64,000 nt of DNA. Source: Escherichia coli. Its GTDB lineage: Bacteria > Pseudomonadota > Gammaproteobacteria > Enterobacterales > Enterobacteriaceae. Shown here piece by piece: positions 9,225-62,051 of the stretch; position 1 is the stretch's first letter; the number at the start of each line of letters is the position of its first letter. The stretch is from the NCBI RefSeq assembly GCF_003334255.1, contig NZ_QOWU01000001.1. One strand, written 5' to 3'. The notes beneath the pieces were generated by a model. The model was not told the origin of the DNA. It searched no databases and was given only the letters and a program-made list of their open reading frames with translations. Position numbers and translations under genes: made by a program.

Positions 9225-10178
<954 letters not shown>

Positions 10179-16286: not shown

Positions 16287-16496
<210 letters not shown>

Positions 16497-16500
<4 letters not shown>

Positions 16501-55709: not shown

Positions 55710-55797
<88 letters not shown>

Positions 55798-59593: not shown

Positions 59594-61096
59594 ATGACGA
59601 TTTTTGATAATTATGAAGTGTGGTTTGTCATTGGCAGCCAGCATCTGTATGGCCCGGAAACCCTGCGTCAGGTCACCCAACATGCCGAGCACGTCGTTAA
59701 TGCGCTGAATACGGAAGCGAAACTGCCCTGCAAACTGGTGTTGAAACCGCTGGGCACCACGCCGGATGAAATCACCGCTATTTGCCGCGACGCGAATTAC
59801 GACGATCGTTGCGCTGGTCTGGTGGTGTGGCTGCACACCTTCTCCCCGGCCAAAATGTGGATCAACGGCCTGACCATGCTCAACAAACCGTTGCTGCAAT
59901 TCCACACCCAGTTCAACGCGGCGCTGCCGTGGGACAGTATCGATATGGACTTTATGAACCTGAACCAGACTGCACATGGCGGTCGCGAGTTCGGCTTCAT
60001 TGGCGCGCGTATGCGTCAGCAACATGCCGTGGTTACCGGTCACTGGCAGGATAAACAAGCCCATGAGCGTATCGGCTCCTGGATGCGTCAGGCGGTCTCT
60101 AAACAGGATACCCGTCATCTGAAAGTCTGCCGATTTGGCGATAACATGCGTGAAGTGGCGGTCACCGATGGCGATAAAGTTGCCGCACAGATCAAGTTCG
60201 GTTTCTCCGTCAATACCTGGGCGGTTGGCGATCTGGTGCAGGTGGTGAACTCCATCAGCGACGGCGATGTTAACGCGCTGGTCGATGAGTACGAAAGCTG
60301 CTACACCATGACGCCTGCCACACAAATCCACGGCAAAAAACGACAGAACGTGCTGGAAGCGGCGCGTATTGAGCTGGGGATGAAGCGTTTCCTGGAACAA
60401 GGTGGCTTCCACGCGTTCACCACCACCTTTGAAGATTTGCACGGTCTGAAACAGCTTCCTGGTCTGGCCGTACAGCGTCTGATGCAGCAGGGTTACGGCT
60501 TTGCGGGCGAAGGCGACTGGAAAACTGCCGCCCTGCTTCGCATCATGAAGGTGATGTCAACCGGTCTGCAGGGCGGCACCTCCTTTATGGAGGACTACAC
60601 CTATCACTTCGAGAAAGGTAATGACCTGGTGCTCGGCTCCCATATGCTGGAAGTCTGCCCGTCGATCGCCGCAGAAGAGAAACCGATCCTCGACGTTCAG
60701 CATCTCGGTATTGGTGGTAAGGACGATCCTGCCCGCCTGATCTTCAATACCCAAACCGGCCCAGCGATTGTCGCCAGCTTGATTGATCTCGGCGATCGTT
60801 ACCGTCTACTGGTTAACTGCATCGACACGGTGAAAACACCGCACTCCCTGCCGAAACTGCCGGTGGCGAATGCGCTGTGGAAAGCGCAACCGGATCTGCC
60901 AACTGCTTCCGAAGCGTGGATCCTCGCTGGTGGCGCGCACCATACCGTCTTCAGCCATGCACTGAACCTCAACGATATGCGCCAATTCGCCGAGATGCAC
61001 GACATTGAAATCACGGTGATTGATAACGACACACGCCTGCCAGCGTTTAAAGACGCGCTGCGCTGGAACGAAGTGTATTACGGGTTTCGTCGCTAA
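59594..61096 (+). CDS. araA: L-arabinose isomerase (500 aa)
   Basis: ORF 59570..61096 trimmed to the ATG at 59594 ([39 protein letters not shown]). Confidence 0.96.
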
Positions 61097-61100
61097 GTAG

Positions 61101-61282
61101 CCGCATCCGGTATGTAACGCCTGATGCGACGCTGACGCGTCTTATCTGGCCTACACGCTGCGATTTTGTAGGCCGGATAAGCAAAGCGCATCCGGCATTC
61201 AACGCCTGATGCGACGCTGGCGCGTCTTATCAGGCCTACACGCTGCGATTTTGTAGGCCGGATAAGCAAAGCGCATCCGGCA
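61101..61282. repeat. tandem REP/BIME array in the araA-araD spacer: two complete 85-bp units plus a 12-bp partial
   Basis: Unit 1 61101..61185 and unit 2 61186..61270 are near-identical (GCGCATCCGG..AACGCCTGATGCGACGCTG.CGCGTCTTATC.GGCCTACACGCTGCGATTTTGTAGGCCGGATAAGCAAA); 61271..61282 restarts the unit. Confidence 0.9.
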
Positions 61283-61295
61283 CGAAGGAGTCAAC

Positions 61296-61991
61296 ATGTT
61301 AGAAGATCTCAAACGCCAGGTATTAGAAGCCAACCTGGCGCTGCCAAAACACAACCTGGTCACGCTCACATGGGGCAACGTCAGCGCCGTTGATCGCGAG
61401 CGCGGCGTCTTTGTGATCAAACCTTCCGGCGTCGATTACAGCGTCATGACCGCTGACGATATGGTCGTGGTTAGCATCGAAACCGGTGAAGTGGTTGAAG
61501 GTACGAAAAAGCCCTCCTCCGACACGCCAACTCACCGGCTGCTCTATCAGGCATTCCCCTCCATTGGCGGCATTGTGCATACGCACTCGCGCCACGCCAC
61601 CATCTGGGCGCAGGCGGGTCAGTCGATTCCAGCAACCGGCACCACCCACGCCGACTATTTCTACGGCACCATTCCCTGCACCCGCAAAATGACCGACGCA
61701 GAAATCAACGGCGAATATGAGTGGGAAACCGGTAACGTCATCGTAGAAACCTTTGAAAAACAGGGTATCGATGCAGCGCAAATGCCCGGCGTTCTGGTCC
61801 ATTCCCACGGCCCGTTTGCATGGGGCAAAAATGCCGAAGATGCGGTGCATAACGCCATCGTGCTGGAAGAGGTCGCTTATATGGGGATATTCTGCCGTCA
61901 GTTAGCGCCGCAGTTACCGGATATGCAGCAAACGCTGCTGGATAAACACTATCTGCGTAAGCATGGCGCGAAGGCATATTACGGGCAGTAA
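61296..61991 (+). CDS. araD: L-ribulose-5-phosphate 4-epimerase (231 aa)
   Basis: ORF track; [49 protein letters not shown]. Confidence 0.96.
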
Positions 61992-62010: not shown

Positions 62011-62024
62011 CCAATCAAACGAAA

Positions 62025-62051
62025 CCAGGCTATACTCAAGCCTGGTTTTTT
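62025..62051 (+). terminator. araBAD rho-independent terminator
   Basis: CCAGGCT atactca AGCCTGG followed by TTTTTT. Confidence 0.85.

Follow-up and report, generated by a model that had tools for sequence, protein, structure and literature searches.

The stretch of DNA analyzed here, referred to as the window, comprises 64,000 nucleotides of the Escherichia coli assembly GCF_003334255.1 (contig NZ_QOWU01000001.1), and our analysis concerns the spacer between the araA and araD cistrons of the araBAD operon. With araA ending at 61096 and araD beginning at 61296, the spacer measures 199 bp, in agreement with an earlier sequence-only reading of the same DNA. The features of the locus, in order along the plus strand, are as follows.

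59594..61096, plus strand: araA, L-arabinose isomerase, the upstream cistron; the ORF ends at 61096 with a TAA codon at 61094-61096, araA is annotated in every E. coli match, and the start at 59594 was set on the basis of the MG1655 araA, which is 1503 nt long.
61102..61110, plus strand: a half palindromic unit, the right arm of an inverted Y (CGCATCCGG), 6 nt past the araA stop.
61111-61118, plus strand: an 8-nt linker, TATGTAAC, after the half Y unit.
61119..61154, plus strand: Z2 palindromic unit no. 1, GCCTGATGCGACGCTGACGCGTCTTATCTGGCCTAC, with 1 mismatch to the 36-nt Z2 consensus.
61155..61167, plus strand: the 13-nt linker ACGCTGCGATTTT, joining the Z2 to the inverted Y of unit 1, as read from the sequence.
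61168..61197, plus strand: inverted Y unit no. 1, GTAGGCCGGATAAGCAAAGCGCATCCGGCA, an exact match to the 14-mer GTAGGCCGGATAAG.
61198-61203, plus strand: the 6-nt linker TTCAAC, after inverted Y no. 1.
61204..61239, plus strand: Z2 unit no. 2, with 0 mismatches to the Z2 consensus and an internal inverted repeat of 14 nt at 86%.
61240..61252, plus strand: the 13-nt linker of unit 2, again ACGCTGCGATTTT, which matches that of MG1655 unit 3 exactly and differs from the G-marked linker in MG1655 unit 2.
61253..61282, plus strand: inverted Y unit no. 2, whose right arm occupies 61272-61282.
61285..61290, plus strand: the araD Shine-Dalgarno sequence AAGGAG, which lies 3 nt beyond the last Y unit and is separated from the ATG by 5 nt.
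61296..61991, plus strand: araD, L-ribulose-5-phosphate 4-epimerase, the downstream cistron, a 231-aa ORF annotated as araD in all matches.

Tandem Repeats Finder reported one array, at 61102-61282, with 2.1 copies of period 85, 94% matches and no indels (score 327), and a repeat search placed the first copy at 61102-61186 and the second at 61187-61271, with 5 mismatches between them. Both programs thus bear out the earlier description of two head-to-tail 85-bp units made of inverted REPs, and the statement that the spacer is almost all repeat also holds, as the array accounts for 181 of its 199 bp; the remainder consists of GTAGC after the araA stop and of CGAAGGAGTCAAC, where the Shine-Dalgarno sequence of araD is located. 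The end of the array had been correctly placed at 61282, while its start was off by one base, an immaterial difference. The sequence that had been described as a 12-bp restart is indeed present; however, it is not the beginning of a third unit but the right arm of the last Y (61272-61282). The 9-mer of the half Y unit occurs twice more, at 61187-61195 and at 61272-61280, where it forms the right arm of a complete Y unit, and no left arm for the half unit was detectable at the 3′ end of araA; in the predicted RNA fold, the partner of the half unit is instead the left arm of Z2 no. 1. In addition, inverted Y no. 1 and the foot of a Z2 form an inverted repeat of 15 nt at 93%. On the minus strand, a 73-aa ORF (61199-61420) overlaps both araD and the repeat, and was judged spurious for this reason.

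The array is a BIME-2, in which Z2 and inverted Y palindromic units alternate with an 85-bp period. The 14-mer found in inverted Y no. 1, searched with up to 2 mismatches, matched 11 times in the 64-kb window compared to the 0.36 matches expected, a number that none of 100 shuffled sequences reached, and these matches were spread over four separate loci. Similarly, the 36-nt Z2 consensus, which we take to be that of the Gilson/Bachellier literature, matched 3 times in the window where 0 matches were expected. The four complete units of the array are imperfect palindromes of 30-40 nt with a GTAG/CTAC foot, as is typical of REPs or palindromic units (PUs), and the copies are dispersed and extragenic: the array lies between two CDSs, and in each of 5,426 E. 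coli genomes the repeat part of an 801-bp query cut from the window matched at 4-36 places. The units are of the Y and Z2 (not Z1) types, with GCCGGAT/ATCCGGC as the arms of the Y units, their orientation alternates over short linkers of 13 nt and 6 nt, and their tandem copy number varies across strains at this one locus. We therefore call the array a BIME-2, since it fits the published definition of z2 and y units in multiple tandem copies separated by short linkers, whereas linkers of 13 nt and 6 nt are too short for the L motif, with its IHF site, of BIME-1 (PMC3333891). GTAG/CTAC feet and inverted REP pairs are present in the array; a REPIN/RAYT (TnpA-REP) substrate is defined by an inverted REP pair with a GTAG guide tetranucleotide together with a cognate tnpA-REP gene in the genome, which would lie outside the window.

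In comparison with the BIME-2 family described by Gilson, Bachellier and Hofnung, the ara array shares the alternating and opposed Y and Z2 units, the short linkers, the tandem amplification, the extragenic position and the strain-variable number of copies. Nothing essential differs, although the ara Y units have a short apex, GCAAAGC, and the array opens with a half Y unit that abuts the araA stop codon. Independent support for the Y+Z2 architecture was provided by the Rfam model naRNA4 (RF02564), which matched 61171..61236 on the plus strand over its entire length (model positions 1-77 of 77; 60.2 bits compared to a gathering threshold of 59.5; E = 9e-10), while a second match, at 61078-61151, reached 31.3 bits and was below the gathering threshold. 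The match is to a paralogous BIME-2 unit, and we rejected the naRNA4 gene itself as the identity of the element because the locus is araA-araD and not yjdM-yjdN. REP325, the naRNA4 locus between yjdM and yjdN, has the same unit design, with one Y and one Z2 hairpin in about 77-85 nt, but it contains six units, whereas the ara array of the window has two and is located elsewhere in the genome and inside an operon. HU binding and nucleoid condensation have been demonstrated for REP325 RNA only (PMC4550694). The window holds three other REP/BIME clusters, at 9749-9762, 16301-16500 and 55731-55772, and the second of these consists of four units, including a Z2 at 16418-16453.

Alignment with the spacers of sequenced E. 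coli strains, the check that the sequence-only reading had proposed, showed that K-12 MG1655 carries three units. In MG1655 (NC_000913.3), araD occupies 65855-66550 and araA occupies 66835-68337, and the 284-bp spacer between them contains 3.1 copies of the 85-nt unit, exactly one unit more than the window, in agreement with the sequence-only reading, which gave the K-12 spacer as about 85 bp longer. One clean 85-bp gap was the sole difference between the two spacers over 271 shared bases in a pairwise alignment. Unit 1 of the window is identical to MG1655 unit 1 and unit 2 of the window is identical to MG1655 unit 3, while the unit absent from the window is the MG1655 middle unit, which is marked by a private G (TACGCGCTG) and is one base apart from MG1655 unit 3.

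The best 60 matches with 100% identical flanks all contained three units, and these included approximately 28 assemblies that we judged to be K-12 derivatives from the strain name or from K-12 coordinates, indicating that the array is stable on laboratory time scales. Two further K-12 records have fewer units and are otherwise identical to MG1655: GM4792 (NZ_CP011343.2, 66551-66749) has 2 units, and MG1655 'Boston' (NZ_CP025268.1, 66552-66665) has 1 unit, together with a different AraD protein accession. The counts in GM4792 and CP025268.1 could possibly reflect rare true contraction in laboratory stocks or, alternatively, assembly collapse.

The same concern applies to the window, whose source strain might have three units, one of which was lost in a short-read assembly. 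Short-read assemblies can collapse an array of this kind, 255 bp long with 85-bp units that are nearly identical, and both GM4792 and CP025268.1 depart from the K-12 reference at the array alone. We nevertheless consider such an artefact very unlikely for the window, with only a slight chance of being the explanation, because the 801 bp of the window that include the array were identical in at least 26 independent complete genomes, which come from various laboratories and from pigs, humans, cattle, food, frogs and wastewater, and because the closest relatives over 25 kb (G1/2, G6/7 and G8; 100.0%) also carry the window allele. A further 11 genomes matched the 801 bp at 99.9%, with about one differing position, in a single ungapped piece. 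Furthermore, two-unit alleles with lineage-specific sequence recurred in the sampled O157:H7 and O55:H7 genomes and in records with matching alignment statistics, and the unit lost from the window is exactly the one marked by the private G, as would be expected of a clean in-register event. The two-unit array is thus best taken as the true allele of the source strain.

We estimated the frequencies of the different alleles from 119 of the 5,426 complete E. coli genomes, which were sampled at even steps down the ranking with two queries. Query 1 was a synthetic six-unit allele, and query 2 consisted of the two flanks joined without the array, so that the span of the match gives the spacer length; these replaced the 801-bp query from the window, with which the joining of BLAST pieces was ambiguous for alleles with more units. 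The frequencies describe the 119 sampled records rather than a full census, drawn from complete RefSeq genomes that are a biased sample of E. coli, and were as follows: three units in 20 genomes with query 1 and 19 with query 2 (33% of 119), two units in 15 and 16 (26%), a 168-bp allele with one unit and a boxC-like repeat in 16 and 17 (28%), one unit in 7 and 7 (12%), and a disrupted array in 1 and 1 (2%). None of the 119 sampled genomes had an allele of more than three units. The spacers of the four common alleles measure 114, 168, 199 and 284 bp. As a cross-check, 3,501 genomes (64.5%) aligned at one place to the two-unit query, compared to the 66% that the sample predicts for alleles with up to two units. 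Two units were also found in O157:H7, in O55:H7 and in many other strains, while ATCC 8739 has one unit and both ATCC 25922 and MC4100 have three. The copy-number difference that the earlier reading had described as apparent is therefore real with respect to MG1655, but it is not special to the source strain, since several alleles are common; it is a common strain-to-strain polymorphism.

In the 168-bp allele, one Z2-Y unit is followed by a GC-rich palindrome, CCCCCTCGCCCC...GGGGAGAGGGCCGGGGTGAGGGG, which resembles what we take to be boxC. A 68-nt query over the locus-specific junctions of this allele was near-complete in 1,566 of the 5,426 genomes (28.9%), and the core of the boxC-like element matched at a median of 12 places per genome, which confirmed the 28% found in the sample and indicated that the boxC-like element is itself a dispersed repeat. 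As seen in W12-1 and OkiPb01680, the second BIME-2 unit is replaced in this allele (the site corresponds to 61198-61295 of the window), and the bases immediately before the Shine-Dalgarno sequence of araD are altered. In BH100 substr. MG2017, an IS element, whose gene is annotated as an IS3-like, IS1397-family transposase, is located at the apex of the third Z2 of the araA-araD array, and the right arm of that Z2 is absent beside the IS. IS1397 is described as targeting palindromic units (Clement 1999, as cited in PMC3333891), and the BH100 insertion fits this published specificity; the window itself is without an IS. We also noted that 27 of the 5,426 genomes matched neither flank of the spacer and that about 70 more matched on one side only, among them the engineered strain SYNB1934, in which the araA side is missing. 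Genomes without one or both flanks presumably carry ara deletions or insertions, many of these in laboratory strains.

The direction of the change was read from the 13-nt linker, which varies among alleles and species and was used as the marker of unit orthology; this polarity is based on about 15 strains and two other Escherichia species read unit by unit, and on this one marker region. The linker of the middle unit was GCGTTCCG(G)ATTT in the three-unit alleles of ST540, PK6, 2009C-3133 and the O6 strain C 691-04A, and linkers of the same type were found in E. albertii, whose 114-bp spacer has one unit, and in Escherichia sp. MOD1-EC7003, whose 284-bp spacer has three. The linker of the last unit in E. 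coli is ACGCTGCGATTTT. The presence of a distinct middle linker in divergent backgrounds suggests that each of the three units has its ortholog throughout E. coli and that three is the older state. In K-12 the middle unit reads GCGCTGCGATTTT, in which the first base (G) of the old middle linker is kept, and the rest of the linker looks converted. On this reading of the linkers, three units are probably the older E. coli state and the window allele is probably a one-unit deletion, although gene conversion between units, which is visible in the O157/O55:H7 allele, could blur the orthology of the units.

The reverse polarity has also to be weighed, according to which two units would be ancestral in this lineage and K-12 would have gained its additional unit by duplication, followed by an A-to-G change. 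This would account for units 2 and 3 of MG1655 being only one base apart, as they would be soon after a duplication. However, the base that differs is the first base of the GCGTTCCG(G)ATTT linker, which was seen in four divergent E. coli backgrounds with three-unit alleles, and the outgroups have linkers of the RCGTTYCGG... type, such that a new duplication could arrive at this linker only by coincidence. We thus regard a gain in K-12 as improbable and favor the loss of one unit from a three-unit ancestor in the lineage of the window.

Loss of units has happened more than once. We found at least four structurally distinct two-unit alleles, namely the window type, the O157/O55:H7 type, in which the order of the Z2 variants is swapped, and those of 537-20 and AVS0533, together with two one-unit alleles: Ec-U1, which is identical to K-12 unit 1, and g1-11, which combines the 5′ part of unit 1 with the 3′ part of unit 3 of the O6-type array (C 691-04A). 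The existence of structurally distinct two- and one-unit alleles indicates that contraction is recurrent. For the window allele, one unit would have been lost through misalignment of neighbouring units that share 40-84 nt of identity, and a crossover anywhere within these 40-84 nt of perfect identity would give the exact product seen in the window. The unequal recombination that had been put forward for this locus fits such a clean in-register 85-bp indel; replication slippage and activity of the REP transposase (TnpA-REP) fit it as well, and the event may have been replication slippage, unequal sister-strand exchange or recombination assisted by TnpA-REP, a route proposed in PMC3333891, among which the sequence alone cannot separate.

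A site scan found no sigma-70-like promoter in the araA-araD spacer, and no intrinsic terminator, that is, a GC-rich hairpin followed by a T-run, was present in the spacer, the only one being located downstream of araD. The array should thus be transcribed inside the araBAD mRNA. About 30 nt past the araD stop, at 62022-62048, lies a hairpin with a 10-bp stem that is terminator-like on the minus strand and likely represents the terminator region on the araBAD/polB side.

The transcribed array is predicted to fold strongly. The 226-nt RNA with two units had a minimum free energy (MFE) of -97.7 kcal/mol (z = -5.3), with none of 200 dinucleotide shuffles as stable, and the three-unit RNA reached -140.8 kcal/mol (z = -7.4), corresponding to approximately 43 kcal/mol per added unit. 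The predicted ensemble is diffuse, with a frequency of 0.006 for the MFE structure and a mixture of local hairpins and long Z2:Y pairings, so that the actual RNA structure is uncertain. The junction between the last unit and araD, CGCATCCGGCACGAAGGAGTCAACATG, was identical in all of the one-, two- and three-unit alleles that we read, except that in 537-20 it begins with T and not C, and the junction between the araA stop and the first unit was unchanged in these alleles. Since both junctions are left untouched by copy number, any difference between the effects of two and three units is expected to be small and quantitative.

REPs affect mRNA stability, and transcription attenuation associated with BIMEs is also known. 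From this we infer an effect of the array on the stability of the araBAD mRNA: its hairpins would block 3′-to-5′ exonucleases, so that the araBA segment would persist longer than araD or be more abundant, and transcription might also be attenuated at the array before araD is reached. Newbury and Higgins reportedly found in 1987 that the malE-malF REP stabilises its mRNA. That system likewise has REP hairpins between two cistrons of a sugar-utilisation operon, and protection of the upstream segment would be expected here as well; however, the demonstration concerned mal rather than ara, and the ara array is a multi-unit BIME-2. A rule by which REPs within 15 nt of a stop codon down-regulate translation has been described (PMC12306157), but we did not adopt this mechanism because the first complete unit lies 22 nt past the araA stop, and the only structure nearer to the stop is a non-canonical hairpin in which, in the predicted fold, the half Y unit pairs with a left arm of Z2. 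A literature search for REP or BIME sequences at araBAD found nothing relevant, with earlier polymorphism-typing studies being outside its reach.

The array may also act as DNA. BIME-2 elements are bound and cleaved by DNA gyrase (Espeli and Boccard 1997, as cited in PMC3333891), and the works cited there describe BIME-2 as in vivo targets of gyrase cleavage and REPs as topological insulators. By recruiting gyrase, the array could conceivably insulate the araBAD operon topologically, or provide a site of relaxation within it, when the operon is strongly induced. Such a role would be compatible with one at the RNA level, and we put it forward tentatively, as less likely than not. The explanation that best covers the observations, and that we consider very likely, is that the locus is a BIME-2 that behaves as a variable-number tandem repeat, that the window allele most probably arose by the loss of one unit from three, and that the array should be transcribed and could form hairpins whose effects, if any, would be small and quantitative.

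We extended the analysis to other species by scanning one genome from each bacterial species for the araD-start pattern, which showed araA before araD in 49 species of the Enterobacteriaceae. In these species the araA-araD spacer measured 47-284 bp, with a median of 88, and a strongly folding palindromic element (z < -2 relative to mononucleotide shuffles; median -3.9) was present in 40 of the 49. The families of elements differ: besides REPs of the E. coli type, the spacers of Salmonella and Citrobacter contain other REP types, those of Klebsiella, Kluyvera, Phytobacter and Buttiauxella contain boxC-like repeats, and those of C. freundii and Atlantibacter contain a hairpin with a T-run. The recurrence of a structured spacer across species may reflect selection for an intercistronic element, or the spacer may be a mere permissive landing site. 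Two matches outside the family were also noted. An assembly of Chryseobacterium sp. 18061 contained an araA-araD junction of the enterobacterial type with an E. coli-like REP, suggesting that the contig is a contaminant, and a Thaumarchaeota MAG matched the araD-start pattern without araA upstream, probably by chance.

This distribution also bears on whether copy number and choice of element have drifted neutrally, or whether they could be under selection as a rheostat that sets the AraD:AraBA ratio. In the latter case, the four common E. coli alleles would be distinct expression variants and not neutral length variants. The spacer was never shorter than 47 bp in the 49 species, a folding element was present in 40 of them despite the different families to which the elements belong, and four allele classes are found at intermediate frequency in E. 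coli. Moreover, the ratio of the enzymes matters, as loss of araD leads to a build-up of toxic L-ribulose-5-phosphate and thereby makes cells sensitive to arabinose. On the other hand, REP and boxC elements usually settle in permissive intergenic positions, between genes that are convergent or co-transcribed, and copy number leaves both junctions, including the araD ribosome-binding site, unchanged. On balance, we consider selection on the array improbable, and we prefer to regard the alleles as length variants of a BIME-2 with at most small quantitative effects.

Length polymorphism of BIME-2 elements is already known as a class: their variation from strain to strain dates from the 1990s and has been restated in PMC3333891 and PMC1187871, and araA-araD is one more variable locus. 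The finding is thus of little importance beyond good annotation. In practical terms, the spacer provides a handy, PCR-sized strain marker, and the array is a spot where short-read assemblies may miscount units. The common alleles also constitute a natural allelic series in which the number of REP units can be related to mRNA decay or attenuation within an operon.
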